Source: Escherichia phage vB_EcoM-P3322
Reading direction: 5' to 3' (one strand)
Sequence record: PV191315.1
Length of the DNA: 64,000 nt
Below the pieces are notes generated by a model, which worked only from the letters and a program-made list of their open reading frames with translations, did no database searches and had not been told where the DNA came from. Position numbers and translations under genes: made by a program. This document shows, in pieces, positions 23,929-64,000 of this stretch (position 1 is its first letter; every line of letters starts with the position of its first letter).

Positions 23929-24173
23929 TCGACGAGCTTGCCTCTCAAGTCATAGAAAATTATTGGCGCGAGAGAGAAGCTTTCATTATGCGCAGTCTCA
24001 AAGAGTATTTCATTGGGACTGTGCGAATGGAAGATATTGTAAGTAGAGTAGAGATTCATGTATGGCCTGATTATGAAGAATGGGTTGACAAAGAAAATGA
24101 AAATGCTATAATTCTTCGTATATACAAACCGGAGATAACATTAGGAGGAAGAAGTGTTAAACTTCGAAATTGA
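23925..24173 (+). CDS. hypothetical protein
   Basis: Track ORF 82 aa; ATGA overlap. Confidence 0.45.
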   Translation: MIDELASQVIENYWREREAFIMRSLKEYFIGTVRMEDIVSRVEIHVWPDYEEWVDKENENAIILRIYKPEITLGGRSVKLRN

Positions 24174-29801: not shown

Positions 29802-31580
29802 GTGTCGCACATTATAACTAAATATGGATTTGATGTTGATCTTAGCAAGGAAGGACATACAGGTTGTCCGCGCTGCATGAAAAATGGCAAGGATCGCTCT
29901 CGTAATAACCTGATGGTTTATGGATTAGATTCTAATGGAGAGCATAAAGGTGCTAAGTGCTTTGCGTGTGAATACACTATTCCTAGCGTAGAATGGTTAC
30001 GAGAAAATGGTGAAGTTTTAGAAGAAGAGGAGGAGATTGTGGGTTCGGAATTTAATAAACAGATTCATCGTAAAATTGTTCAAGAAACATCAACCAACCC
30101 ACGTGGTTATCGAGGCATTAAAGAAAAAGTTTCATCTTTCTATGGTGTTCGTTATGAATACCGCCAGGAAGGGGATCAGATGGTAGTAGAAAGTTGTTTA
30201 TATCCAACTACTATCGGTAAAGAATTAGTTGGTTTTAAGCGTCGTATTCATCCTAAAGATTTCAGTAAACCTATTGGTCAAGTAGGTAAAGATGTAGATC
30301 TTTTTGGACAAATTCGTTTTGCAGACCGTTCTCATACTGTGGTAATTACAGGTGGTGAACACGATGCTCTGGCAGCTTATCAAATGCTGTCTGAAAACTT
30401 GGACAACAAATATGAACTTCCAGCAGTAGTTAGTGGCACAACTGGTGAAACCAGTATGTATAAACAAGTTCAGGCACAATATCCTTTCTTTGAAAAATTT
30501 AAGAAGATTATTGTTTGCATGGATAATGACAAAGCAGGTAATGAGGCATTTGAAAATATTGTTAAGGTGTTGCCTCGTAACAAAGTCTACCGTATGCAGA
30601 TGGATCTTAAGGATGCCAATCAGTATCTGGAAGAAGGTCGTGCAAAAGATTTCGTAAAAGCTTTTTGGAGTGCTCGTCTATACACCCCAGCAGGTGTTTA
30701 TGCTTCTAATGTCTTGTATGAAGCTGCATTAGAATGCTTGGAATCCAAGATGATTACCTTGCCTCCTTTTATGCGTGTTGCTGCAAATATGCTGGGTGGT
30801 GGTTTAGTAGAGGAAGAGATTACAGTTATCCTGGCGAAGACCAGTATCGGTAAAACTTTGATGGTGAACGAGATCACCAAACATATTATTGTTGCGCACC
30901 CAGAACATACCCTAGGTATTCTGTCCTTGGAAGCAACTTATAAGAAATATTCTCGTAACCTGTTGTCCTCGTTCCTGCATATTCCTCTACACAGGAAAAC
31001 ACCGGAAGAGAAATTTCAAATCTTGGAAGAGAATAAAGAAAAAATCCTAGATTTTTACGAAAGAGAAGATGGATCACCACGTTTTTATGTGTGTGATGAT
31101 CGTGGAGCAGATGTGGAGTCTATCAAAGAAAAAGTTTTGGAGATGATCATCTATTTTGGAGTAACAATTCTTGTTATCGACCCTTATTCTGATTTGCTTT
31201 CTGGTATGGATGTTCAAGCCCAGGAAGAGTTAGCAACATGGTTGAAGCGCATCATGAAAGAGTATGCTATAACTATTATTGTCATCTCACACGTTAAGAA
31301 ATCGGCTAATGGTGGCAATGAACACTTAACAGAGGACGATGCAATGGGTAGTAGTTTCTTGGCTAAAGGTGCTGGTATTACCTTGGCTTTGGAACGAGAT
31401 AAAGCCGCTGAAGACCCTGTAGAACGCAATACGACTCATTGCTTTATCCTAAAAAACCGTGAGTTCTCAGAAACTGGTCCGGCAGGGCAGTTTTACTATG
31501 ACATTAGAACTGCAACTCTGCATGACAAAGAGCAGTATTTCAACAATCCTGCTAATTTGCCTACGGATAGCAACTATTAA
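29802..31580 (+). CDS. bifunctional DNA primase-helicase (T7 gp4-like)
   Basis: N-terminal zinc ribbon CPRCMKNGKD...CFACEY; TOPRIM-like VVITGGEHDALAAYQ and CMDNDKAGNEA; helicase Walker A AKTSIGKT and Walker B-like LVIDPY. Confidence 0.7.
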   Translation: MSHIITKYGFDVDLSKEGHTGCPRCMKNGKDRSRNNLMVYGLDSNGEHKGAKCFACEYTIPSVEWLRENGEVLEEEEEIVGSEFNKQIHRKIVQETSTNPRGYRGIKEKVSSFYGVRYEYRQEGDQMVVESCLYPTTIGKELVGFKRRIHPKDFSKPIGQVGKDVDLFGQIRFADRSHTVVITGGEHDALAAYQMLSENLDNKYELPAVVSGTTGETSMYKQVQAQYPFFEKFKKIIVCMDNDKAGNEAFENIVKVLPRNKVYRMQMDLKDANQYLEEGRAKDFVKAFWSARLYTPAGVYASNVLYEAALECLESKMITLPPFMRVAANMLGGGLVEEEITVILAKTSIGKTLMVNEITKHIIVAHPEHTLGILSLEATYKKYSRNLLSSFLHIPLHRKTPEEKFQILEENKEKILDFYEREDGSPRFYVCDDRGADVESIKEKVLEMIIYFGVTILVIDPYSDLLSGMDVQAQEELATWLKRIMKEYAITIIVISHVKKSANGGNEHLTEDDAMGSSFLAKGAGITLALERDKAAEDPVERNTTHCFILKNREFSETGPAGQFYYDIRTATLHDKEQYFNNPANLPTDSNY

Positions 31581-31599
31581 GGGCTTCGGCCCTTTTATT
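31581..31599 (+). terminator. rho-independent terminator
   Basis: GGGCTTCGGCCC hairpin followed by TTTTATT directly after primase-helicase stop. Confidence 0.65.
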
Positions 31600-31610
31600 A
31601 AAAATACCTG

Positions 31611-31639
31611 TTGACAACTTTACGGAAGAGACTTATACT
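31611..31639 (+). promoter_or_regulatory. strong candidate sigma70-type promoter (TTGACA-N17-TATACT)
   Basis: Near-consensus hexamers with optimal spacing, about 30 nt before 31673. Confidence 0.55.
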
Positions 31640-31672
31640 TGTCTCATCAACCAAACAAGAGGAGAAGTAAAA

Positions 31673-50622: not shown

Positions 50623-50644
50623 AACAACCTCTTTGTTTTTCTAA

Positions 50645-50670
50645 GTAAGCCCCTCCAAAGAGGGGCTTAC
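50645..50670 (-). promoter_or_regulatory. 5' leader stem-loop (11-bp stem) just upstream of RBS of 50314..50622
   Basis: GTAAGCCCCTC-CAAA-GAGGGGCTTAC inverted repeat; no U-tract; same position relative to RBS as the TerC leader hairpin. Confidence 0.3.
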
Positions 50671-50849
50671 AGTGGTAGTGACAACACTTTGAGTTAGTAC
50701 GATAGTAACTAAAGACAAGATTAACCCTGCTACGATATGTTTTCATCATTTTATCACATGGCGATGATATGCGCTTGCAGGACATAGCTTGTGTGGATTG
50801 TGCTGAATGCAATTTTGGCCTATTGTCATCAGTAAGAAAGCATTCATTC

Positions 50850-50873
50850 CCCCGCCGAAGCGGGGTTTTTGTT
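50850..50873 (-). terminator. hairpin terminator after 50872..53160 (A-tract/hairpin/T-tract, possibly bidirectional)
   Basis: CCCCGC-CGAA-GCGGGG stem; T5 on plus side, A-run on the other; related stem at 62283-62298. Confidence 0.4.
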
Positions 50874-53160
50874 ATATAACTGAAGTAACAACACCATTGA
50901 TTGTTGCTTTTATCTGTGCAGTTGGATGAGGTCTAACATTAATGGTGCCTCTATTACTTGATGCCCCAATAAATACATCATACCCTGAAGTTGCGTTGAA
51001 ATCCGAGAACAGGCTAACCGGGCTTGCATTCTGAGTGGCAGGCACAGCAGATGAGGTTCCACAACGCTTCAGGATACCTGGTGTTGCTAAGGATGATGCA
51101 GCATCGCGACGGCAAGTAACGTCAAGATCAAATGTGTATCCATCAAATCCGTATTGTGTTGAATCCTGATAAAGTTTCATTACTTCTACTGTTGAACCTC
51201 CGGCAGAAGAGTTATGGTTGAGTCCTGTGAACTTCATTCTGGTAAATCGATTGTCCTGCACAACTGTATCGAATGTCTTTTCAATTTTAAGACTGCTTAA
51301 ACCGTATACACCGTTCAGAAGTATAGGGTTCTGGACACGCGTACTCATGCTTATATCAATAGTCGGCGCGTTATACAGGTCAATCCTGTCACCAATGGAA
51401 CCTGAACGATCTTTGATATTTACGGCAATAGAAAATGTAGCATCATTATTATCAATTTTTATTGTCGATCTCTTATCTACCTCTATTGTCATAGATGGAG
51501 ATGACTCTGCTACTGAAGTTCCTGTTATTGTCAAAGAACGTGGATATTTAGTTACATATATTTTTGCTTCTTCGCTATAGTTTCCCGCCACAAAGGTTGC
51601 CTGGCTGTCTCCTATGCGTATTTCACCAGTTTCAACAGTTGCAGCAATGACAGACGTTCCAATAATCGGAACCTCTACTTTAGTTCCGGAAGGGAAATCA
51701 GATGTCATTGCTCGATCAAGAGTAATGACGTTTCCCGATATTGCTGTAATTCTTCGAGTCTCAACACCGCCAGTCGAGTTTGTAAAAGCAATCTCAAACC
51801 AGGTATCAAAACCAGAGGCATCTGCAACAGTAACAGTGTTGTCATTGATAGATGCTGGCGATGTCAGTGTGGTGCTCATACCCTCAATAGACAAAGTACA
51901 TTGGGCTTTGTCACTACTACCAATGTAACCCATCAACTTGATGGAGTTATTACGAACTCGAACACCGTACTTAGTTCTGGTGGAGCCGTTTTTTGTTCCC
52001 TGTGAGTGTCCATACCAATACATAACAAGATGTAAAAGATCGTAGTTGCTGATACGGTGATCAATTGATTTATTACGAACAGTAGCATAAGGCGCAGTAT
52101 AGATAGCTCTGGCTGCTGCGCTGGCACCATTATTAGAAATGTTTCCATTTACGGTGAAACCTTCAACTGTTTGGTGCCAGTGGAGACGATCTCTGCTCCT
52201 GTCACGCGGATCAATTCCGACATGGTGCAGTGAAATGTCAGATGACGTTGACATGATTATTGTTGCGTCATTTCCGGCACCGGAAAAAGTAAATCCTCGA
52301 CGATCAACATCAAGGTTGATTGTATTTGATAGATAGCTTCCGGAAGGGAATGATAACTTAGATATTATACTGTTAGCCCTTGCAACCCTGTTTGCTTCAT
52401 CTATAGCAACTGAGTTTTCATCTGCGTCTGCACCGCCAAAACCAAATTCATCATACCCCATGCTCTCTCTTACAATTAAGTTGGCATTAAACCCGCCCGC
52501 TATTGGGATTGAGTATGTATCATCATTTTGTGTTGTTGATATTAACCATTCTGACTCAGATCTTATTCCATGTTTGTTTTTATATGTTTTTACAATCATC
52601 CCTTCGCTGAATGTGGCACCATCCCCTGATGGCAGAATTCCAGATATTAACTCTGAAACGCTATTAAATATTATAGTTGTGTTTTTATTAACCCACAATC
52701 TCAAAGAAGCATCGCCAACACTAACCCACGCACTAGGACCAACGCCACCAGTTGATGTAGGGGTTGATTTAGGTGGTACATCTTTAGGGAAACCAGACCC
52801 CCATGTGTAGCACTGAGCACCCGCTATGTACCAGACAGCATCAGTTACACTGCCCACTGTAGCCCCTTCTTCAAAACTACCATCAACAAGAGTTAACCCA
52901 GCCTCGGCAAGACTACGACGCCACTGTTCACGATCATTAAGAAGATTGTTATTCAACTCTTCCTGAACAGTATTACCATTTGAAGATTGTATGAAATCTG
53001 CTCCATCTGTATCTTTCAACTGGGTGGCTAAAACCACCCCAGTGTCAGTAAGAAAGTTGGAAACTGTGCTTTTAACAGTCTTATCAGGTTGGTCTAAAAC
53101 CAGGTAATCAGAATCATTAACTTTTGATGTTTCGGGTAAATTAGTAATTGTAGTTGACAT
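50872..53160 (-). CDS. tail fibre/tailspike-like protein (762 aa)
   Basis: Large beta-rich Ser/Thr/Asn/Gly-rich protein in the tail module. Confidence 0.4.
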   Translation of the reverse strand: MSTTITNLPETSKVNDSDYLVLDQPDKTVKSTVSNFLTDTGVVLATQLKDTDGADFIQSSNGNTVQEELNNNLLNDREQWRRSLAEAGLTLVDGSFEEGATVGSVTDAVWYIAGAQCYTWGSGFPKDVPPKSTPTSTGGVGPSAWVSVGDASLRLWVNKNTTIIFNSVSELISGILPSGDGATFSEGMIVKTYKNKHGIRSESEWLISTTQNDDTYSIPIAGGFNANLIVRESMGYDEFGFGGADADENSVAIDEANRVARANSIISKLSFPSGSYLSNTINLDVDRRGFTFSGAGNDATIIMSTSSDISLHHVGIDPRDRSRDRLHWHQTVEGFTVNGNISNNGASAAARAIYTAPYATVRNKSIDHRISNYDLLHLVMYWYGHSQGTKNGSTRTKYGVRVRNNSIKLMGYIGSSDKAQCTLSIEGMSTTLTSPASINDNTVTVADASGFDTWFEIAFTNSTGGVETRRITAISGNVITLDRAMTSDFPSGTKVEVPIIGTSVIAATVETGEIRIGDSQATFVAGNYSEEAKIYVTKYPRSLTITGTSVAESSPSMTIEVDKRSTIKIDNNDATFSIAVNIKDRSGSIGDRIDLYNAPTIDISMSTRVQNPILLNGVYGLSSLKIEKTFDTVVQDNRFTRMKFTGLNHNSSAGGSTVEVMKLYQDSTQYGFDGYTFDLDVTCRRDAASSLATPGILKRCGTSSAVPATQNASPVSLFSDFNATSGYDVFIGASSNRGTINVRPHPTAQIKATINGVVTSVI

Positions 53161-53168
53161 TTTTACTC

Positions 53169-55322
53169 CTATATATAAAATTTTTGTGTTGTTACTAAAT
53201 CTTCTCCAGATTTAGTAGCTAATGTAATTCCACTTATGGTAGCAATCTCAACATTTGCTTGTTTAAGAGTGATATCTTGCAAATAACAATTCAAAGGCAC
53301 ATTACCCATATAGAAAACTTGGGATTGAGAATTAACTACCGTGATGGAATCATGCATTATTTGAGGATAGGCCCATATATATTGTGTAAGCCCATTGAAC
53401 TTATTGGCGTTCAACACTATATTACCTATAATCATTTTCCAAAGATACGTGCGGTAGTTTGATTCAGGATCGAAGCCATACAAAGGTGCAAGAGTAGCAT
53501 CTGGAACAAAACCCGAAAGATAGTGAATATCAGAATATTCAAAACCTAATTTTTCATGTGGTATGGTAATTGCATCGAATGCTTTCATCATTTTACCTTC
53601 CAGAAGCCAGTCGTAACACTCTGAACAGTAAAAATCAAAAGTTTCAGGAATGTAGTAATCAGACGGAAAGTTAACTTTCTCCATCAAACCGTTGCCAATA
53701 ATTGACGGTAAGAACGGAAGCAATGTTACTTTAGCTCCTGGATAAGTTGCTCTAGTGTCTGTTGCAAACTTTGTAACTCTTAATCCTAGTTTACGAGACA
53801 AAAATGCATAGTATTCGTCAAACGGTGTTCCTGTTTTATAATTATCTATTGTTCCTGCATCTTGTGCAAATAAGCCTGTTTCTGTATTGAATGCTAGTTT
53901 GGTAGTGTAATCATATATACAAGGCATTTTACTTGCTGTATTATACCACCACCAAGGTTCACCAATTTGAATGACGACTGGAATATTGTTAGTTTGAGAA
54001 ATAGATGCTATTTTGTTAATAACATTTTGCAAATATTCCATACCTTCATCAATAGTTGGAGACAACACGTAACTAGGAGGCTTATACCCTGTTGCTGCAA
54101 GAGCATCGTTCCAATCATGCTGGACCCATTCAACAGGACAAACTGTGCTCATCAACTCAAAACTCAAAGAGTTCATTATTGTGTAGCCATTTTCATTAGC
54201 TATAGAATGGAAACTGTTAAGCCAAGCTTCTGTAGCCGGATTCAGGAAAACAGATCTATTTAAAGCCCAAGATGTTCCGTTCCATGAGAACTCATAATAG
54301 TGAGACATTCCGTTGTAATGGTTAATCATTCCACGATAACCTAGTGCATATGTATTATAAATAACTCTCTCTGGAGTCAGGTTATACATATCATCATAAG
54401 ATGTGCACATGCGAATATCATGTTCAGGCTGGACAAGGTTGCTGACTTTCATCATACTGTAACCAGAAGTAGGTTCAAGAAGAGTGAAAGTAAACCAAGC
54501 CTCTTGACTGGCAATAGGTACAATCTCTTCTATTTCTTCATACCTTGCTGTAATCAAAGAGAAGAAAATATTATCTACAGCATTCATATCCAAAGGAATA
54601 TCATTATTAGGGCCAGAAAAGATATTACCAAAATCTAACTTTATTGTGGCTGTTTTACCATCTTCTGAAATATCTGAAGCGTAGAATCCTAAACTGACAT
54701 AATGAACACTTTTATCCAGGAGAGTTACAGTCAAAGTCGGCACCAAAGGTTCTTCTTTAAAACCTGGCATGTTTTGACTAATTTCCATTTTAAACCAAAG
54801 TTTCTCTGAACTTAAATCTGTGTGAGGCAAATACCCAACACCTTTATGGTCATATTTGTCAACTGTGCTCCAGATAACCCCTGCCAAACCTGCTGTTGTT
54901 CTGTTTACAAATCTTGCAGTAAAAGAGTCTCCATGAGATACAATAGAACAACTTTCCGTTGCTTGAGAATCTATTGTCCAATACATAGGAGAGAACATTT
55001 TAACGTCTTTTGTAGTCCAAGTTATTGGAGTAGTGTTTTCTTGGATAGTAGTTATAATACAATTGATGGTTGTTTCAACCATCATGTTATTTTGACTAAT
55101 CCCTGAAACTTGGAGGGAGAAGTTAAGATCTATTGAGTTCTTTGGTCGTTCAAATACTTCAACCACAATAGTAGCAGAATCAGCATCATCAGGGAACACA
55201 AGTGTTCCCGATTTTGCAATATAATCTCTACCAGCGACTGCTGTTCCGTCAACAGTCGTGTAGTTAAATGAACTCGCATTTACTCTCTTGTCTCGCGTGA
55301 CAGTAAATATAGCTTGTTTCAT
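53169..55322 (-). CDS. large virion structural protein (717 aa)
   Basis: Track ORF with strong coding continuity in structural operon; no motif recognised. Confidence 0.45.
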   Translation of the reverse strand: MKQAIFTVTRDKRVNASSFNYTTVDGTAVAGRDYIAKSGTLVFPDDADSATIVVEVFERPKNSIDLNFSLQVSGISQNNMMVETTINCIITTIQENTTPITWTTKDVKMFSPMYWTIDSQATESCSIVSHGDSFTARFVNRTTAGLAGVIWSTVDKYDHKGVGYLPHTDLSSEKLWFKMEISQNMPGFKEEPLVPTLTVTLLDKSVHYVSLGFYASDISEDGKTATIKLDFGNIFSGPNNDIPLDMNAVDNIFFSLITARYEEIEEIVPIASQEAWFTFTLLEPTSGYSMMKVSNLVQPEHDIRMCTSYDDMYNLTPERVIYNTYALGYRGMINHYNGMSHYYEFSWNGTSWALNRSVFLNPATEAWLNSFHSIANENGYTIMNSLSFELMSTVCPVEWVQHDWNDALAATGYKPPSYVLSPTIDEGMEYLQNVINKIASISQTNNIPVVIQIGEPWWWYNTASKMPCIYDYTTKLAFNTETGLFAQDAGTIDNYKTGTPFDEYYAFLSRKLGLRVTKFATDTRATYPGAKVTLLPFLPSIIGNGLMEKVNFPSDYYIPETFDFYCSECYDWLLEGKMMKAFDAITIPHEKLGFEYSDIHYLSGFVPDATLAPLYGFDPESNYRTYLWKMIIGNIVLNANKFNGLTQYIWAYPQIMHDSITVVNSQSQVFYMGNVPLNCYLQDITLKQANVEIATISGITLATKSGEDLVTTQKFYI

Positions 55323-55330
55323 TTTACCCC

Positions 55331-58207
55331 TTACTCGGTAACGTCCACACTAATGTTTGCCATTGTCAAAACAGTAAGTGCAGGAATATTGCTCGAATCC
55401 AAAACAGGTAATGCATTTTGGGGATTAAGTTTTTTGTATAAAGCATACAACCCAAAACCACGTAACAACTCTCCGGCGTGGAAGCCAAAGAAGACTCCGT
55501 TATCACTGTCTGGTCTAGGGGCAGCACTCCAACAACCATTCATAACGTGATTAGGACCAAGAACAATATAATTTTCCTGAATAAGTTCAAAACAGCGATC
55601 TGCTACTATTTTAATGTTAGGAATTTCTGAATCATATCCAGCCATCCCCATTATAGCACATCCCGCCATAAAGAGCGCAGACATGTGACTTGTAAAGTCA
55701 TCTACAGGCGCAGCCACTTCTCCGTTGGGATAAAATATTGTTGGTGTTCTTCCTTCGTTGTTATCTTGGAACCACTTCAGATAATTGATCCAGTTTTTAC
55801 AAACTGTTAAAAGTTTTGCAGGAACTTCTGCTCCTCGTTGCTTCAGTTCGTATACTGTATGACACGCACAGAAGAATGCTCGTGCTTCATAACCATCCCA
55901 AGCTTTATCGTTCCAATGATACATTGTGAACTCATTCTTGTTTCCGTATTTATGAGCATCCCAACGATCCCAAACATAAGCTTGTGCCATTGGCCCAGGC
56001 ATCACAGGGGCAAACTTATTATAAAACCACATTTGTGAATCATATAAAAAGTCTATACTGTTGTTCATACGAACCCAATCAATATCTCTCCCTTTAAAAC
56101 AATATAAGGATGGGTATTGATAACCTGGGTAAGGAATACCACGCCAACCGTCATATAAGGCTGTGTTAGGATCACTGATATTGGAAAATGGAATGATTCC
56201 TGGAGTATAATTCAAACTGTTAAGTTTGTAGTCCAGTATTGTACAATCTCCAAGTTTTGCTGTATAAGGATTTTCAGATGAAACTGTAACCCTGAAATAC
56301 ATTGTGTAATCATCACCAGTGGCTGAAGAATACAAAGATGGGATATCGTTAACGCAATAAAAATCGATTGCCCCTGTCAAGCCATTTGCAGGTTCAGAAT
56401 CCAATGCAATATTGATCTGATCAACAGCAGTCAGGTTTATTGACGAAGGTTTTGCCTCTGTGTCTTCGTGATTAGGTTGCCAAGTACTTAATTTGAAATC
56501 GGCAGGACTTAAAGCTTTAGTAACCCATGCAGAATTTGTTTTTTCTAACATGGCCCACCATCTCCAACCTGCGGAATCCGTAATAGTGATGTTAAAATCA
56601 TCTGCGTATGAACGATACGTAATAGATTTTAAATTGGCTGTTTTAGTTGGTGTTAACCAAAACCCAACAGTAAAACCACCATCTGAATCCATATTAGCAG
56701 AAACTATCTGATCACTATTTGTCCCAGCAATACCAGTTGCATATTTATATTGTATCACAGTATTGCTTCCCCAGTCAACAATAATTCTGGGTTCAGCAAT
56801 AATATATACACCACCTCCAGGAGGTTCGGTGCGCATAAAACTAGATAAAGGTATATCCATCTTAGTCATATTAGCTGCACCAAGAGGTAAGCCACAACGA
56901 TATGTCACTGTGTCTGTTTCACTCTTAGTTTTGCTTAATTCTAGCTCTGGACGGAAAAGAACACCTTCCCCTGCATCATCTACACCTTGAAACTCAATAC
57001 GCAGTTTTGAATTCTGATCTACTCTGAACCAAACTGCCTGTTGTTCTAGAGTTGTTTGTGCTGCAACATCTTGGCGAATTACTGTGTATCCTAACTCGTC
57101 ACGAGAATATTTAGGTATTGCTGTAGATGGGTATGAGTAATCATACGAGATACCATCTGTAAAAGGAATTATTGCTGTCGTAGATCTACGGAAGAATTTA
57201 TCAAACATATCGATGTTTGAGTAGTCTTGACACAACAATAAAGAAGATTGCCAGCAAAGCCAGTATTTTCTCTCTCCTGTGATTTGATACATCAAGTAGT
57301 TTGCATCACACCACCACGTTTCAGCATCGGAAGCATTATCTTGATAGCCTAACTCTACCGGAACGTTTACAGGACGGTTATGCCACATCTCATTACGCTT
57401 AAGCAGATATCCACCGTGTTCTACAGGATTGCATGTAGCGTAGTTGAATTTATAGTCCCCGTTCACAGAAGCATTTTTAAGTTGCACTGTTCCATATTCT
57501 GCAAAGCTATGACCAGTAGATAAAATGTTACCATCCCAATCAACTTTACGTCCTAGACGGTCTATAATCCATTCAACGTCCCACTGATCTCCATATTCTT
57601 TCCAGTTGGTTGAACCATCTGGGTTAGTTGCATAAACTGTTGCGTTAACGGAGTTCCAACCAAGATTGCCATTGAAAGCAAACCAAGCTTTATCTAAGTA
57701 TTCCCCCCAATGCGGTGCACCTTTAGGAATAACAGTCCTTCCGTTAATCCAAGTCATCATGCTACCTTTGAACCCGCCGTGCGTAGGATACCCATCATCT
57801 GTGAGAGGGTAATGTGCTAAACGTGGTTCTTTACCATTGATGATCCAATTGGGACGATATTTAGCTGGAGGATCAGGAATAGGTTGGCCCCCGAAGAAGT
57901 GATCTATATAGGCTTGCCAATACTTCTCGGCAGATTCAAGATATTTTTTATCCCCTGTAGCCAAATATGCATAAGCAAAACCAGTGATAAGCACAGATTG
58001 ACCTTCGGTAGTAGCGTCACCGTTTGGTTGCCCTTCCTGCGCTGTCCAGTTAATAAAGTGTCTGTTGTTCGCCAATACGTTTTGTGGGTTGATAATGTAA
58101 TGCTGAACCGTAGGATCTATGGTAAGCCCAGTATTTCTTTCCAAAAACTGAACCAACCCTTCAATCAACTGAAACGTGTTGTCAATATTGTGCTTAACTC
58201 TTGACAT
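55331..58207 (-). CDS. large virion structural protein (958 aa), aromatic-rich, possible carbohydrate-active domain
   Basis: Trp/Tyr/Asn-rich composition typical of glycan-binding or glycosidase-like tail proteins; unverified. Confidence 0.45.
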   Translation of the reverse strand: MSRVKHNIDNTFQLIEGLVQFLERNTGLTIDPTVQHYIINPQNVLANNRHFINWTAQEGQPNGDATTEGQSVLITGFAYAYLATGDKKYLESAEKYWQAYIDHFFGGQPIPDPPAKYRPNWIINGKEPRLAHYPLTDDGYPTHGGFKGSMMTWINGRTVIPKGAPHWGEYLDKAWFAFNGNLGWNSVNATVYATNPDGSTNWKEYGDQWDVEWIIDRLGRKVDWDGNILSTGHSFAEYGTVQLKNASVNGDYKFNYATCNPVEHGGYLLKRNEMWHNRPVNVPVELGYQDNASDAETWWCDANYLMYQITGERKYWLCWQSSLLLCQDYSNIDMFDKFFRRSTTAIIPFTDGISYDYSYPSTAIPKYSRDELGYTVIRQDVAAQTTLEQQAVWFRVDQNSKLRIEFQGVDDAGEGVLFRPELELSKTKSETDTVTYRCGLPLGAANMTKMDIPLSSFMRTEPPGGGVYIIAEPRIIVDWGSNTVIQYKYATGIAGTNSDQIVSANMDSDGGFTVGFWLTPTKTANLKSITYRSYADDFNITITDSAGWRWWAMLEKTNSAWVTKALSPADFKLSTWQPNHEDTEAKPSSINLTAVDQINIALDSEPANGLTGAIDFYCVNDIPSLYSSATGDDYTMYFRVTVSSENPYTAKLGDCTILDYKLNSLNYTPGIIPFSNISDPNTALYDGWRGIPYPGYQYPSLYCFKGRDIDWVRMNNSIDFLYDSQMWFYNKFAPVMPGPMAQAYVWDRWDAHKYGNKNEFTMYHWNDKAWDGYEARAFFCACHTVYELKQRGAEVPAKLLTVCKNWINYLKWFQDNNEGRTPTIFYPNGEVAAPVDDFTSHMSALFMAGCAIMGMAGYDSEIPNIKIVADRCFELIQENYIVLGPNHVMNGCWSAAPRPDSDNGVFFGFHAGELLRGFGLYALYKKLNPQNALPVLDSSNIPALTVLTMANISVDVTE

Positions 58208-58680
58208 TAAATAACTCCTGCTAAAACTAAGCTACCTGTCCAAGTTGCTCCATTATCATAACTGATAAACTCAAAAGTGTCTGTTGCACCTTGACGATAA
58301 CTCAAAACTGGGGAACGACCAAAACTCCATTTTACAGAAGAAGGCCATACGACTTTATTTGCACCACTTCCTTGACGCAAAGCTAAAGTAAAGTTTAAAA
58401 CTGCATTTGTTGCTACTGGAATATTAGTAAAACTAATTGTGCATGTTGCAGAAGATAAAGTTGCCGAAAAATATTCTGCTGAACTAATATCTAATGCCAA
58501 GGTGCTAGTTACTGTTCCACGTGCATTTAAACGGTTTCTAGTTACCCCTGCACCACTCAACAGCACTTTCAAAGAAGTTTTCTTTGTTATTCCAGCCTGA
58601 TCTGTTACAAAGAAATCTGTATCAGACACAGAGGTTGTTTGTGTAAGATCAGAAATTTTGATCGTAGTTAAATCTGCCAT
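58207..58680 (-). CDS. hypothetical structural protein
   Basis: Track ORF 157 aa; ATGA-type coupling to neighbours. Confidence 0.45.
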   Translation of the reverse strand: MADLTTIKISDLTQTTSVSDTDFFVTDQAGITKKTSLKVLLSGAGVTRNRLNARGTVTSTLALDISSAEYFSATLSSATCTISFTNIPVATNAVLNFTLALRQGSGANKVVWPSSVKWSFGRSPVLSYRQGATDTFEFISYDNGATWTGSLVLAGVI

Positions 58681-59306
58681 TACTCTTCTACTCCTGTCAT
58701 AGCTGTTATACCGAAATTATTGTTTGTAGCTAATGCATCACCTTTTTCGTTAACCATGATTCTTTCCACTGATGACTCTGTAGACCATTCATTCCACCAA
58801 GTAGAGTAGGTATCACGTGGCAAACCAACAAAGTTGATAAAGCGATAAAGTCTATTCGAATTCTCAACAATACTGTAAGCTTCACAAATGATCGCTGCAT
58901 TGTCTTCACCAGCTTCAGGGTAAATAAACTCTTCAGAAGGTTGAGTATTGAATATAGATGTTACTGTATCTGCTCCAACTGTGACCATAACTGTCATTGA
59001 GTAATAACGTTGATCCATGTCATAAGCAGATTTATAACTGTTTATTGTATCTATGTAAACGTTTTTGGCAATCTCTGCTAAAAATATTCTGTCTACAATA
59101 TCTTTCTTTCTAGCAACACCAATAATCTCTTGTAAGTAAGGAACACCGAAGTTAGTATTTAAAAACCACTCCCCACGATACGTGTTCAGAGTTATCCCAA
59201 GAGTTTGTGCTGCAATTTCTGTTCTGGTTGTAGTGAGGACCAAATCCCCATCATCCATGATGAGGTCGTTGTTTGGTCCAAGTTTTAAGTCAAAAGGGAT
59301 TCCCAT
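58680..59306 (-). CDS. baseplate wedge-like protein (gp25/GpW-type region, tentative)
   Basis: 208 aa; N-terminal DDGDLVLTTTRTEIAAQTLGITLNTYRGEWFLNTNFGVPY resembles the small baseplate wedge family. Confidence 0.3.
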   Translation of the reverse strand: MGIPFDLKLGPNNDLIMDDGDLVLTTTRTEIAAQTLGITLNTYRGEWFLNTNFGVPYLQEIIGVARKKDIVDRIFLAEIAKNVYIDTINSYKSAYDMDQRYYSMTVMVTVGADTVTSIFNTQPSEEFIYPEAGEDNAAIICEAYSIVENSNRLYRFINFVGLPRDTYSTWWNEWSTESSVERIMVNEKGDALATNNNFGITAMTGVEE

Positions 59307-59307
59307 G

Positions 59308-60042
59308 TTAGGCTCCTGTTGGTTTTAAGGACTCGGCACTTGAGCTACCGCTCTGAATGTTACGAACCGTGTGCGTGTGAGTATGGAATCCGATGCCATT
59401 ACCATCTGTCATCAAACCGTTCTGATCTATTTTAAGACCATTGATATCTGCCACGCCGCCTTTGAAAGTTAAATTACCACCTTTTAGATCCAAAGTCCCT
59501 GTGCCATCTGTAATAGTAATACCGGAGGTAGTAATATCTATTTTCATCCCTTGACTATTCCATATTGAAATATTACCTGTAGGGTCGAAAGAAGCGTACG
59601 TGTTTTTGTTATTAGAAATAACTACCTTTTCAGAATCTACAGCTTCTGTTGAATCTGTTCCTGTAGCTATTTTGGGAATAAAACAAATAGGGTATAATCC
59701 ACAAGGCTGCATAAAAGTGGATGATGAAGAGGTTTCTCCACTAGTTTGCAGTGCATTAGAAGGATCTCTTTCAGAAAATATAACAGTTCCTAAATCGCCA
59801 GCTTTAATAGGGAATGAGATTCTTCCTGTCCCACCACCATTAACCATAAAAGGAACATCTTCAAAAGTAGGGTAATCTATTTCATCTTCGCTAGATCGTG
59901 TGTTTTTAACAATAGATTCTAAGGTGACAGTCTTAGCACCATAATTAACACCAGTCACACGGACTGGCAGGGCTGTATGGACTTCTGCTAATTGTTCTGT
60001 CATTAAGCCACGCATTGCTGTGACAAAATTCAATGCATCCAT
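59308..60042 (-). CDS. baseplate central spike protein (gpV/gp5-like)
   Basis: 244 aa; OB-fold-like N-terminus, Gly/Thr-rich beta-helix-like repeats, C-terminal HTHTHT as in metal-binding spike apex domains. Confidence 0.4.
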   Translation of the reverse strand: MDALNFVTAMRGLMTEQLAEVHTALPVRVTGVNYGAKTVTLESIVKNTRSSEDEIDYPTFEDVPFMVNGGGTGRISFPIKAGDLGTVIFSERDPSNALQTSGETSSSSTFMQPCGLYPICFIPKIATGTDSTEAVDSEKVVISNNKNTYASFDPTGNISIWNSQGMKIDITTSGITITDGTGTLDLKGGNLTFKGGVADINGLKIDQNGLMTDGNGIGFHTHTHTVRNIQSGSSSAESLKPTGA

Positions 60043-61052
60043 TATTTCTCCTTAGTCATTATTTCAGACACGGATACACACTCCACTTCAGTAACCCACT
60101 CTTTACCCTCTTTATCCCCATTGTGAGAAACAGAAACAACTTTAAACGGACCATCATAATCTCGGCTTTTTAACCAGATTGTTTTTTCTGGTAATATTGC
60201 ACCATTCATTTGGCATTTGAATTTAACACCGTCTGTAGGTTTCTTTGCCTTCTTAGAGGATTTGGTAACTTTTTTAGTAGGTTTTATATCGTTGTGGAAT
60301 GGTTCTGGACTTCCTATCAGACCAGTTTCAGGGCTAATATAGGCGCTACGTGCACTAGACATTTGTGAACGAGGAGTGACATAAACAGATCCATCTTGTA
60401 TTGACACATTGTGATCAATACTTTTACAAATATGTTCTAGGTAATGTGAAGTGTTTCCACACATAGCTGTTGCTGAAGATAAGGTTTGATCATTATCTAC
60501 GTGTATATTACCTTCTGTAGTTCCTAAATCCTTTACCAAATCTGTCACAACACGTTTGATTTTAGTTCCTTTTGGATAACTGCGGCTTGTTCTTGCTTCT
60601 GCAATGTTAATACCGCCATCCAAACAGTGTAAAGTGGTTTTCCTGTCTACCGAGTCAAAAGTATCACTAACCCACTGGATAGTTCCTTTGAAGATCATAA
60701 CCAACTCTTCACCTTCGTATCCTACCGCTAAAGCAACAGCCAAGTTATTTCGGATACCACGGTTTATATAGTTAACAGTATCATCTGAAAGGTTATAAAC
60801 TACAATCTCTGCTTGGTTAGGATCTTTGTTATTATCTTTCTTAATACTGAAGGTTATTTGATGGTCTTGCAACAAATACAAATTAGAAGAGGATTTTTCT
60901 GTTGTCCCTAACTTGGTATCCAAATCTACTGTAGATTTAAATGCCGAGTTCTTAGTTCTCTTCTGTATTGTGTTTGTGGCAGAACCAATTAATAATTTGT
61001 ATGCCCTGTTTAAATTAGGGGCAGGAGCTTTTGTATACTCTCTTTCTGCCAT
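60042..61052 (-). CDS. baseplate hub-like protein (tentative)
   Basis: 336 aa between tail-completion-like genes and spike. Confidence 0.3.
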   Translation of the reverse strand: MAEREYTKAPAPNLNRAYKLLIGSATNTIQKRTKNSAFKSTVDLDTKLGTTEKSSSNLYLLQDHQITFSIKKDNNKDPNQAEIVVYNLSDDTVNYINRGIRNNLAVALAVGYEGEELVMIFKGTIQWVSDTFDSVDRKTTLHCLDGGINIAEARTSRSYPKGTKIKRVVTDLVKDLGTTEGNIHVDNDQTLSSATAMCGNTSHYLEHICKSIDHNVSIQDGSVYVTPRSQMSSARSAYISPETGLIGSPEPFHNDIKPTKKVTKSSKKAKKPTDGVKFKCQMNGAILPEKTIWLKSRDYDGPFKVVSVSHNGDKEGKEWVTEVECVSVSEIMTKEK

Positions 61053-61061
61053 ATTATCTCC

Positions 61062-61475
61062 TTACGCCTGATTAGGTTTGTTATCAATATAAACCAATAC
61101 AAAACGTTTATCTCGACCTGTAGTTGTATACCCAGGACGACCATTAATCTTGACTGTATCTACTATATATAATTGACCATCTGGCACACTTTCAAGATAT
61201 TTATAAGGTTTAAGAAGATCTAAACCATTTGTAACTTTGAAACTTATACTCGGATCATCCCCAGATAATCCCATCTGACATTGCCAAGATTCGTCCCTAG
61301 TGTTCCACCTTAAACGAATGTCATAATCAACCCCATCCAATGTAACTGTATATGTTTGATCAGGGTACTCTTCAGTTTTCAGATACCATGCAAAATAAGT
61401 AGAATGGTCCTCCAGATAAACTGCACTGTAGCCAGTGTTACTTGTAGACCTTGTTGTTTTAGAATAAGTTGTCAC
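61062..61475 (-). CDS. hypothetical tail protein
   Basis: Track ORF 137 aa. Confidence 0.45.
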   Translation of the reverse strand: MTTYSKTTRSTSNTGYSAVYLEDHSTYFAWYLKTEEYPDQTYTVTLDGVDYDIRLRWNTRDESWQCQMGLSGDDPSISFKVTNGLDLLKPYKYLESVPDGQLYIVDTVKINGRPGYTTTGRDKRFVLVYIDNKPNQA

Positions 61476-61477
61476 TA

Positions 61478-62179
61478 TTAACCTCCGTTGTTTGTTGGGG
61501 TATTAGTAGCTTTGCCAGTTCTTACTGTAATATCTGACTTAGGACCATCTGAAGAAACTTGTCCTTTCACATCACCACCAGTTGACTTATTTGGTGCTGT
61601 TTTTACAGCGATAGCGTTAGTAGTGGCCTTAGAGACTAGACGGATTTGTTCGAACTCTAAATCAAATTGCATAGCAAATTCAGATTTATAATCATAAGAG
61701 TAGCCTTTGAGAATAACATTTTCAAAAGTTCTGTGTTCTGTCAAAAGAACTATTGGTTGTCTTGACTCAAATATTTGGTCCAGATATTCTATTGCTTGAG
61801 AAATCCTTGCTCCATTTACACCTGCACTATATAATTGATCTCGCATAAGTCGAATTGGTGTTTCGGTAATTATACCTGAAAGTTTAAATCTGTTATTTTT
61901 TATCTGAACGTGATCGCTTACATCCGATCCTGATTCCACAGGAAAACTTGTAACATCTGCTTCACGAGTTACACCTATTTCAGGGACTGAATCGAAAGTA
62001 ATTGCTTTAAAGTTTTGAATGTATTGATCGCTTGAACTATTATAAACACTTGCTAAAATACAGAAACCATTATCACCCTTTACGGTAGATGCCGAGGTAT
62101 TTTTATTCTCGGTAGAGTTGATTTCCTGTTCTGCCTTGTAGACGGCTCTCACCGACTGTTGTGGAGTCATTGCTGCCAT
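61478..62179 (-). CDS. hypothetical tail protein
   Basis: Track ORF 233 aa; first gene after internal promoter. Confidence 0.45.
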   Translation of the reverse strand: MAAMTPQQSVRAVYKAEQEINSTENKNTSASTVKGDNGFCILASVYNSSSDQYIQNFKAITFDSVPEIGVTREADVTSFPVESGSDVSDHVQIKNNRFKLSGIITETPIRLMRDQLYSAGVNGARISQAIEYLDQIFESRQPIVLLTEHRTFENVILKGYSYDYKSEFAMQFDLEFEQIRLVSKATTNAIAVKTAPNKSTGGDVKGQVSSDGPKSDITVRTGKATNTPTNNGG

Positions 62180-62238
62180 GATAACCTCGTGGTAATGATA
62201 ATGCCAAAAGGAAGATGCAAGATCTTCCCATATTGATT

Positions 62239-62268
62239 ATTGTAACACATATAGAAACTTCGTGTCAA
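62239..62268 (-). promoter_or_regulatory. candidate sigma70-type promoter inside tail module (TTGACA-N18-TACAAT on minus strand)
   Basis: Hexamers read on minus strand just downstream of the tape-measure terminator; inverted repeat GGAAGATCTTGCATCTTCC in the leader. Confidence 0.35.
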
Positions 62269-62276
62269 GGGAAACG

Positions 62277-62298
62277 AAAAAACCCCGCCGAAGCGAGG
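62277..62298 (-). terminator. rho-independent terminator after tape-measure gene (minus strand)
   Basis: On minus strand CCUCGC-UUCG-GCGGGG (one G-U pair) followed by UUUUUU. Confidence 0.5.
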
Positions 62299-62305
62299 TA
62301 TTTTA

Positions 62306-64000
62306 TTAACCACCAGTGTTAGATTGTCCACTTAGAGTTGAAAGAGATAAACGTTGGAAAATACTATTTCCGCTATTTTGAATTCTTGCATCAAGAATAT
62401 TTCCAAACTCTGAAGAAGGGCTGATCGTAACTTTGATAAGATCACTTGGTATTGCTACCGTATTCTCAACAACAGGTTGATTACGAGCCAAACTTACATT
62501 AGGTGTATATGCCGACTGACGTAAATCTTCCAGAGGATTACCAAATCCAAAAGCACGTGTCCTTGTTTGTTCTCCTCTCCACATACGACCAATATCTTGT
62601 GTATCAATACCTGTTAAATTGTACAACCAATCTGCTACAGGATTGCTGTCTCCACTTTGCGTTGCCTCGTATGCTTTTTGTGCCAAAGATTTATTAGGAT
62701 CTGTGTTGTCTCCGAAGGTATCTGGGAATGTTTCTTTAAGCCAATTGGTAAAAGATCCGAAACCATCTCCTAATTCTTTAGCAAAACCACCAAGTTGAAC
62801 TGTTGTTTTACCAAGTTCTTCACCTAAATCTTTGGCGAACTGATCTAGCACTTTAACGTTATCCAACCAAGAATCATCTTTAGGTAAAGCTTTTACAAAA
62901 CCTTCTAAGAAATGGTTCTGCATACCTTGACCTACAAGCTGAACTGTTGCAGCAAAACGAGTAAACTCTTTAGAAGCGTCTATTTGTTCTTGAGTTAATG
63001 TTGCACCTGTTCTTTGAAGCATTTTCAATGTTTCATTGTATCCTTCGCCGTTTTTACTAAACATTCGTTGGTAGTGCATAAGGTCGTCACCAAGGTTTTC
63101 AAGAAGTCGCCCGATTTGAGCAGAGTTCATACCTCGACGCTCACCCTCATTAACAGTAGCCTGAATAAAAGCTAAAGGATCGTTCTGTAAAGGTTTAAGC
63201 TGTTCTGGATTCCATCCAAACAAGTTCATAATGTCGTTTATGCCATTATCACCGCCTTTCCACTTCCCTTCTTTCTCATTCCATTTTGAGGCTAAAACTG
63301 TATTACCAAGACGTTCACGAACGTCTTTAATATTATCTATTGACTTAATAATATTTGCAGAGTCTACACCGTTCTGTTCACCCCAAGCTGTCATCGTTAA
63401 AATAGAGTTGGCGTTTGTCTGAACGTTTTCAGCGCCACGGCTTACAAGTTTAATTCTTTCGTTAGTATTCATCAAAGTGTTACCAACTACAGAACCACCT
63501 GCAAACAGTCCAGCACCGATCAAAGAGGATGCAATCATGCGTGGATTAAGACCTGCTGCACCTTCTTTTAATTGTCCATATCGACGATCACGATCACGTT
63601 TTTGTTGAGCTAATTCACGCTTACGGTTGCGTTCTATATCTCTAAGTTCACGATTTCGCATACGTATACGCATTTTAGCTTCTGCTTCTAGCTCTCTACG
63701 AATACGGCGACGACCGCGAACCTCGTCTTCTATTTCAGCATTCTTTTCACGATGAGATCTGCGTAAAGCATCCAACTGGTGAGCAAGAGCTTGGTTCATA
63801 CGTTGAAGAGTTATTTCACCCTTTTTGTATTGCTCTACAGCTTTACCCATAACGTCTCTAGCTTCTTGCATAGCGCCAGGACTAGCTTTACTAAATGCTC
63901 TTGCTCGATAGTTAAAGTTCTGCAAACGAAGATTACCTAAATCTTCCCTACGTGCTGCTGCTTTAGCTTCGCGTTCAGCAGCTTTACGAGCTTTTTCTTC
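62306..64000 (-). CDS. tail tape measure protein, N-terminal part beyond window
   Basis: Track ORF 62306..63925 begins at an internal TTG; frame stays open to 64000; Arg/Glu/Lys-rich coiled-coil stretches and Gly-rich hydrophobic segment IASSLIGAGLFAGG; sits upstream of baseplate genes. Confidence 0.45.
   Translation of the reverse strand, partial: EEKARKAAEREAKAAARREDLGNLRLQNFNYRARAFSKASPGAMQEARDVMGKAVEQYKKGEITLQRMNQALAHQLDALRRSHREKNAEIEDEVRGRRRIRRELEAEAKMRIRMRNRELRDIERNRKRELAQQKRDRDRRYGQLKEGAAGLNPRMIASSLIGAGLFAGGSVVGNTLMNTNERIKLVSRGAENVQTNANSILTMTAWGEQNGVDSANIIKSIDNIKDVRERLGNTVLASKWNEKEGKWKGGDNGINDIMNLFGWNPEQLKPLQNDPLAFIQATVNEGERRGMNSAQIGRLLENLGDDLMHYQRMFSKNGEGYNETLKMLQRTGATLTQEQIDASKEFTRFAATVQLVGQGMQNHFLEGFVKALPKDDSWLDNVKVLDQFAKDLGEELGKTTVQLGGFAKELGDGFGSFTNWLKETFPDTFGDNTDPNKSLAQKAYEATQSGDSNPVADWLYNLTGIDTQDIGRMWRGEQTRTRAFGFGNPLEDLRQSAYTPNVSLARNQPVVENTVAIPSDLIKVTISPSSEFGNILDARIQNSGNSIFQRLSLSTLSGQSNTGG

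Follow-up and report, generated by a model that had tools for sequence, protein, structure and literature searches.

The stretch of DNA considered here, referred to as the window, comprises 64,000 nucleotides of Escherichia phage vB_EcoM-P3322 (PV191315.1), in which, by the ORF map, the late morphogenesis genes run along the minus strand between 64000 and about 38134. The area round the junction that is the subject of this study is 97-98% identical to Escherichia phage phAPEC8 and to about 60 other genomes of Phapecoctavirus, a genus of Stephanstirmvirinae whose members are myoviruses of roughly 150 kb. Matches to 61400-63400 in a phage collection further include 96-98% identical genomes labelled Campylobacter phage B15, A150 and A110a, Acinetobacter phage vB_AbaM_ABPW7, Pseudomonas phage PsgM04F and 'Dompiswa phage TSP7_1', and these host labels look doubtful. 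Upstream of the junction lies the 3' part of the tail tape measure gene (62306-64000, minus strand), so named in the RefSeq entry of phAPEC8 and matching phrog_16051, 'tail length tape measure protein' (E=0). The alignment covers positions 126-660 of the 660 positions in the PHROG profile, and the 5' part of the gene therefore lies beyond the end of the window. The reading frame closes with a double stop, TAA TAA, at 62308-62303 (first TAA at 62308-62306), and an intergenic gap of exactly 126 nt, 62180-62305, separates it from a Dit-like gene.

This gene (61478-62179, minus strand), which encodes a tail tube initiator or distal tail protein, starts with an ATG at 62179 and is the first of the downstream unit. 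It matches the Pfam family Dit_like (PF21821, 9.4e-27) and phrog_817. In RefSeq and in the PHROG-derived annotation it is named 'tail fiber protein', and one record names it tail tube initiator; the RefSeq name is probably a mislabel, as a position directly after the tape measure suits a distal tail or tube initiator protein. Directly after it come a Pam3-gp18-like plug, the baseplate hub, the spike and more tail proteins (Pfam, PHROG). Together with wedge-like and large tail proteins, these baseplate and tail genes occupy 50872-61475 on the minus strand (ORF map, Pfam, PHROG) with no gap of more than 10 nt, and they are presumably co-transcribed from the promoter predicted at the junction.

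A first-pass annotation of the gap had placed a UUCG-loop hairpin with a U6 tract on the minus strand right after the tape-measure stop, and such a structure indeed occupies 62299-62277. It begins 7 nt past the tape-measure TAA, in the sense orientation, with the arms ACCTCGC (62299-62293) and GCGGGGT (62288-62282) round the loop TTCG (62292-62289), and runs into six Ts (62282-62277) followed by CGTTT. In RNA the stem ACCUCGC/GCGGGGU has 7 bp, five of them G-C and one U.G; the first T of the U6 tract can double as the partner of A62299 in the bottom pair of the stem, which is the sole correction that the earlier description requires. The fold is predicted at -11.2 kcal/mol (z = -3.25 against shuffles) and a consensus scanner lists the hairpin as terminator-like. 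A GC-rich stem-loop and a U-tract on the transcribed strand just 3' of a stop codon are the hallmarks of a Rho-independent terminator, and transcripts would be expected to end at this U-tract, fully or partly. The terminator is already on deposit, with a sequence identical to that in the window, for phAPEC8 (JX561091, 76837-76854; ARNold), Schickermooser (ARNold) and ASO2A (TransTermHP/WebGeSTer). A search of Rfam gave sub-threshold matches only, the istR match (21 bits against a gathering score of 45 bits) being driven by the terminator. Among close relatives, AV125 replaces the U.G of the stem by U-A. RNA read from the opposite strand would have a mismatch, C.A, where minus-strand RNA has the U.G, which together with the AV125 pair fits action in the sense transcript. 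KKP 3954 has UAUUUU in place of U6, from which it appears that a strong terminator is not strictly required.

Eight nucleotides past the U-tract begins a promoter-like element, also on the minus strand, and the TTGACA-N18-TACAAT that the earlier description had given is found at 62268-62239. A perfect -35 hexamer, TTGACA (6/6; 62263-62268), is followed by a spacer of suboptimal length, 18 nt, that ends in TGt (62247-62245) and forms with TACAAT (5/6; 62244-62239) an extended -10 element (62239-62247), the TG of which had previously gone unremarked. Hexamers 16-18 nt apart with a TG at -15/-14 define the extended -10 class of sigma70 promoters, to which the site would belong with 11 of 12 consensus positions. 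By standard sigma70 promoter geometry transcription would start 6-8 nt past the -10, at 62231-62233. The site is the top promoter match of the consensus scanner in 54-64 kb, and no other match on the minus, or late, strand of 38-64 kb reaches 11/12; a match of 11/12 with TG turns up in 0.2% of random segments of the window, each of 126 nt, and in 0.01% of shuffles of the gap. The T4-type late promoter, read by gp55/gp33/gp45, is a different element: it has TATAAATA without a -35, and the junction has TACAATAA with a consensus -35. A second site, TTGGCA-N18-TATCAT at 62207-62178, was put down to chance, given that its -10 overlaps the start codon and that the site is not conserved. While the terminator had been annotated before, neither the promoter nor the leader hairpin described below is annotated in the records of phAPEC8, Schickermooser and ASO2A.

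The conservation of these elements could be followed, with the Dit-like protein as anchor, through 14 junction sequences representing 12 lineages of two subfamilies, Stephanstirmvirinae and Vequintavirinae. All 14 have the motif TGnTAnnAT in the space from the tape-measure stop to the Dit-like start, and it is kept down to about 27-30% protein identity, in rV5, Av-05, CR8 and phiTE. A terminator is found in 12 of the 14, with stems that vary in sequence and stay complementary (GGGGC/GCCCC, ACCCGC/GCGGGT, GGGGGC/GCCCCC and others; the differing stems are those of L003, L014, 05F01, rV5, Av-05 and CR8), which is the structural behaviour expected of a functional hairpin; none was found at the junction of the KP2025/L008 lineage. 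The consensus -35 is limited to Stephanstirmvirinae, mostly as TTGACA, with TTGACT in L014 and TTGCCA in 05F01, and the Vequintavirinae sequences (rV5, Av-05, CR8, phiTE) have a poor -35 or none (8-9/12).

Pairwise identity was computed over the five independent Stephanstirmvirinae lineages with an N18 spacer, KP2025, which also has TTGACA, being close to L008. It amounts to 100% for the -35, 100% for the TG and 75% for the -10, of which TA..AT is invariant, as against 43% across the 15 nt of the spacer and 10% at the 'n' of TGn, in lineages whose proteins are 69-80% identical. An invariant -35 and TG round a drifting spacer is the signature of selection on promoter function. Within the genus, 64 records span the junction, with an identity of at least 97.9%. 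In seven aligned sequences (three further relatives and four variable records), the seven substitutions all miss the 18 positions of the -35, TG, -10 and Shine-Dalgarno sequence; zero hits against about one expected by chance is consistent with constraint, and not significant.

These figures bear on the possibility that the promoter match is fortuitous and that only the terminator is functional, the downstream genes being reached by read-through. It is true that promoter-like sites as such are no more frequent in 54-64 kb than in shuffled sequence (32 found, 28.7 expected). It is also true that smaller relatives express these two genes without an intervening promoter: at 29 loci (L009-L013, L015-L037), on IMG/VR contigs of 16-76 kb that are probably prophage-like, the two genes abut or lie 30-50 nt apart. 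Yet the rarity of an 11/12 match with TG, the fixed -35 and TG and conserved -10 beside a drifting spacer, and the persistence of TGnTAnnAT at 27-30% protein identity all speak against coincidence, and we consider this explanation extremely improbable. Given its absence from the smaller relatives, the terminator-promoter module looks like an addition of the large lytic lineage. At L015-L026, a hairpin, GGCGGG-TAATT-CCCGCC, spans the tape-measure stop codon in place of the module.

Several junctions of other lineages have features of their own. The stretch from the terminator to the -10 is 84% identical between L006 and the window, against 58% and 70% for the flanking tape-measure and Dit-like coding DNA, and in L003 the same stretch is 29 nt longer (96 against 67 nt) and holds a C-rich run. 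In L008 (1390-1470) and in Klebsiella phage KP2025 (L041, 592-660), TTGACA-N18-TGnTATCAT is set between the arms of an 11-12-bp inverted repeat (GTTGTACATCAG ... CTGATGTACAA), the 3' arm of which covers the first in-frame ATG, about 8 nt past the -10. The start could be sequestered in read-through RNA of these phages, and RNA made from the promoter could be leaderless or nearly so.

How the junction sits among the other signals of the late cluster can be read from phAPEC8, where a hairpin or terminator is found behind the major head, sheath and tube genes and the next gene begins within 24-40 nt, without a promoter. Over its 20-kb head-to-tail stretch, only the junction of the tape-measure and Dit genes combines room for a promoter with a strong match, which makes this junction the one point at which transcription would re-start. 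Further upstream on the late strand, phAPEC8 has consensus -35 promoters, three in the tRNA region and one before gp123, as well as TTGACA-N17-TATTAT upstream of the portal gene and TTGACA-N17-TAGACT upstream of gp117; with several such promoters on that strand, host-type signals would seem to be the rule in the late cluster. In the window itself, the gaps between tail genes at 42.9 and 40.8 kb have terminator-like hairpins and no promoter. On the plus strand, a perfect 12/12 sigma70 consensus with TG, TTGACA-N16-TATAAT, is found at 24085-24112, in an intergenic region of a plus-strand gene block.

The first-pass annotation had taken host-type signals between late tail genes to be unexpected if late transcription uses a phage-specific factor, and this premise finds no basis in what is known of the group, nor in the other sigma70 promoters of phAPEC8. 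The rV5 genome paper reports 33 sigma70-type promoters, 11 of them with an extended -10, distributed genome-wide and including late genes. It finds no homologues of gp33, gp45 or gp55 and suggests that a T4-like reprogramming of the polymerase might not occur (PMC3606486). Likewise, the paper on the Certrevirus CB7 found no phage RNA polymerase and inferred total dependence on the host enzyme (PMC7344957), and the phage group appears to rely on host RNA polymerase throughout. Published transcriptome or start-site data for Phapecoctavirus or Vequintavirinae were looked for in the literature and none were found. As for the proposal that the late tail genes are split into transcription units with host-type signals, it now has the conservation of the terminator and of the -35, TG and -10 behind it, all at the level of sequence, and a terminator and a host-type promoter most likely do divide these genes into separate units.

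The closest known counterpart is in rV5 itself, on which the wider group was founded and for which a terminator, t049, and a putative late promoter, P048, were predicted at the equivalent junction, in the same order of tape measure (gp049), terminator, promoter and Dit-like gene (gp048) (Kropinski et al., 2013; Table S4, PMC3606486). The junction promoter is a new annotation for Phapecoctavirus, the rV5 equivalent having been predicted in 2013. Both phages combine a GC-rich hairpin and U-tract with a -10 of the type TGnTACAAT, and both sites are bioinformatic predictions. They differ in that rV5 has a weak -35 (TTGTAA, N17, 9/12), compared with the consensus TTGACA and N18 in the window, and has no 5' leader hairpin, which the window does have. 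The flanking protein is about 27-30% identical to its Vequintavirinae matches Av-05, A73 and UPEC06, rV5 itself not being among the matches listed. In the rV5 sequence (L040, 515-626, minus strand), P048 as published has TGTTGTAAAAAC at its centre, and a better site, TTGTAA-N17-TGaTACAAT, lies about 20 nt downstream of that core and aligns with the promoter in the window.

An extended -10 kept where the -35 is not raises the question of timing. The TGn element might act independently of sigma region 4 and fire late, once a putative phage factor blocks recognition of the -35, in which case the TTGACA of Stephanstirmvirinae would be an add-on. Apart from the 14 of 14 junctions with TGnTAnnAT and the poor or absent -35 of the Vequintavirinae, this idea draws on the 'late' motif of rV5, TggTAaAAtA, which amounts to an extended -10, and on the concentration of full -35/-10 promoters in the early regions of Certrevirus (PMC7344957). 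There is also precedent: the late structural genes of the Thermus phage P23-45 are read by the host primary-sigma holoenzyme from TG-extended -10 promoters, and such promoters are spared both by its gp39 and by AsiA of T4 (PMC3950348). The late promoters of P23-45, however, have no -35, while the one in the window has a perfect one, and its invariance in Stephanstirmvirinae argues that the contact with region 4 is used. Moreover, a factor that blocks the -35 is known for none of this phage group, and the TG does not separate promoter classes, occurring in 5/8 promoters on the late strand and 3/7 on the early/middle strand (phAPEC8 and window). One lead taken from the rV5 paper, the Srd-like gp11 of that phage, a possible anti-sigma factor, was dropped: tblastn gave no match in the roughly 99 kb searched (the window and the phAPEC8 loci), and RefSeq has the protein as an HNH endonuclease. 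On balance, such phage-timed use of the promoter is unlikely. It is somewhat more doubtful again that the TGn extended -10, invariant across Vequintavirinae and Stephanstirmvirinae, marks a real late-promoter class of rV5-like phages, read by sigma70 independently of region 4 while a putative factor like AsiA or gp39 switches off the promoters that depend on a -35. If it did, late genes would be timed without a phage sigma factor or RNA polymerase.

The pairing of a stem-loop or terminator with a sigma70-type promoter within about 70 nt also recalls the promoter-early stem-loops (PeSLs) of T4-type phages (PMC2839356, PMC4122927). By this analogy, the junction would be a mobile or recombinogenic cassette that marks a module boundary rather than serving mainly to tune expression. 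The composite build (PMC4122927) would suit such an origin, as would the mosaic conservation, with 84% identity in L006 against 58-70% in its flanks and, in L003, a leader 92% identical next to a terminator-to--10 stretch at 51%. The core of the terminator hairpin, the 13-mer CGCTTCGGCGGGG, also recurs at 50850-50862. PeSLs, however, are multi-copy, homologous to one another and sited in hyperplastic regions beside indels, whereas the junction element is effectively single-copy and lies between core structural genes of the tail whose order is constant in all relatives. The 64 kb hold two pairs of a terminator followed by a strong promoter, without extended homology to each other, and only the 13-nt hairpin core repeats; membership in the PeSL cassettes was rejected on these grounds. 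Purifying selection on short elements explains the mosaic equally well, and a mobile cassette is very unlikely.

The other pair, at 31580-31640 on the plus strand in an early/middle gene region, consists of AGGGC-TTCG-GCCCT with a T-run and, after 17 nt, TTGACA-N17-TATACT (11/12). The recurrent core lies in a 249-nt non-coding gap on the minus strand within the tail-gene cluster (50623-50871). There a CCCCGC-UUCG-GCGGGG hairpin follows a stop codon without a U-tract on the minus strand; a T-run stands on the plus strand instead, which makes the hairpin terminator-like for antisense transcription. Also in this gap are an extended -10 that lacks a -35 (TGATAAAAT, at 50756) and, just upstream of the Shine-Dalgarno sequence of a gene of 102 aa, the 11-bp hairpin GUAAGCCCCUC-UUUG-GAGGGGCUUAC.

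Between the predicted start and the Dit-like gene is the leader, in which the previously noted inverted repeat is readily found: GGAAGAT-CTTGC-ATCTTCC, with perfect 7-bp arms, at 62228-62210 on the minus strand. In RNA it would extend to a 5'-proximal hairpin of 8 bp, one of them G.U, with the loop CUUGC (62209-62229; -8.7 kcal/mol), and lies 2-4 nt from the transcript start predicted from the sequence. A Shine-Dalgarno sequence, GAGG (62185-62188), invariant within the genus, stands 5 nt before the ATG. Two reading frames in the leader, of 42 aa (62103-62231, starting at the predicted +1) and 54 aa (62167-62331), were rejected as genes, since the frame closes after 14 codons in L003 and after 7 in L006. 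The same hairpin is present at L003, where the leader is 92% identical, while the coding flanks reach 73-78% and the terminator-to--10 stretch 51%, and Justusliebigvirus has an unrelated 11-bp hairpin at the equivalent position (z = -2.6). In the fold comparison no leader hairpin appeared at the junctions of L006, L014, rV5 and Certrevirus, which puts it outside the conserved core. As far as predicted folds go, it is specific to just two or three lineages.

Stabilising stem-loops of the type in the 5' UTR of E. coli ompA were reportedly described by Emory, Bouvet and Belasco in 1992, and a 5'-terminal stem-loop of this kind has at most about 4 unpaired nucleotides between it and the true 5' end of the mRNA. 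The hairpin in the window would resemble them in being stable and within a few nucleotides of the 5' end, if that end lies where it is predicted. A role as 5' stabiliser of the mRNA is probably the best account of it, and we favour this reading with low confidence. The main alternative is that the repeat acts as DNA, as an operator from about +3 to +22 at which a dimeric phage or host protein would hold the promoter off until late. Perfect palindromic arms centred just downstream of the predicted start would suit such a site, as would the strong conservation of the L003 leader relative to its coding flanks and the different palindrome at the same position in Justusliebigvirus. Against it, the promoter is kept in L006, L014, rV5 and Certrevirus where the repeat is absent, and no candidate binding protein is known. 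Further, the anhysbys variant changes a U-A of the leader stem to U.G, which keeps the pairing in RNA and breaks the symmetry of the DNA. An operator is, in our view, quite improbable.

Taken together, the junction is likely to be a compact piece of punctuation, a terminator and then a promoter, within the late morphogenesis genes of a myovirus of the phAPEC8 type. Transcripts arriving from the head, sheath, tube, chaperone and tape-measure genes would stop, wholly or partly, at the Rho-independent terminator, and the host sigma70 promoter beyond it, with its -35, N18 and TGtTACAAT, would begin a new mRNA near 62231-62233. This mRNA would carry a leader of about 53 nt and then the genes for the Dit-like, plug, hub, spike and other tail proteins, and its hairpin would most likely shield it from 5'-end-dependent decay. 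In this way the baseplate and fibre genes could have an expression level of their own, separate from that of the head and tube genes, which are heavily transcribed and terminator-attenuated. Termination, the initiation of transcription and its start point, the timing and the role of the hairpin are all predicted here from the elements, their statistical rarity and their pattern of conservation. The suboptimal spacer, the weakened U-tract of KKP 3954 and the lack of a terminator in KP2025/L008 count against the proposal.

Overall, the junction is, on the evidence of its sequence, a genuine, conserved and ordinary regulatory site, and it reveals no new mechanism. Phapecoctavirus phages are widely isolated as coliphages for therapy, and adding a well-supported, unannotated promoter and a candidate 5' stabiliser hairpin to their genomes is of modest practical value. 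The pair of a terminator and an extended -10 after the tape-measure gene emerges as a conserved landmark of rV5-like phages. Moreover, a defined fragment of 126 nt would offer a handle on how these phages time their late genes by host polymerase alone.
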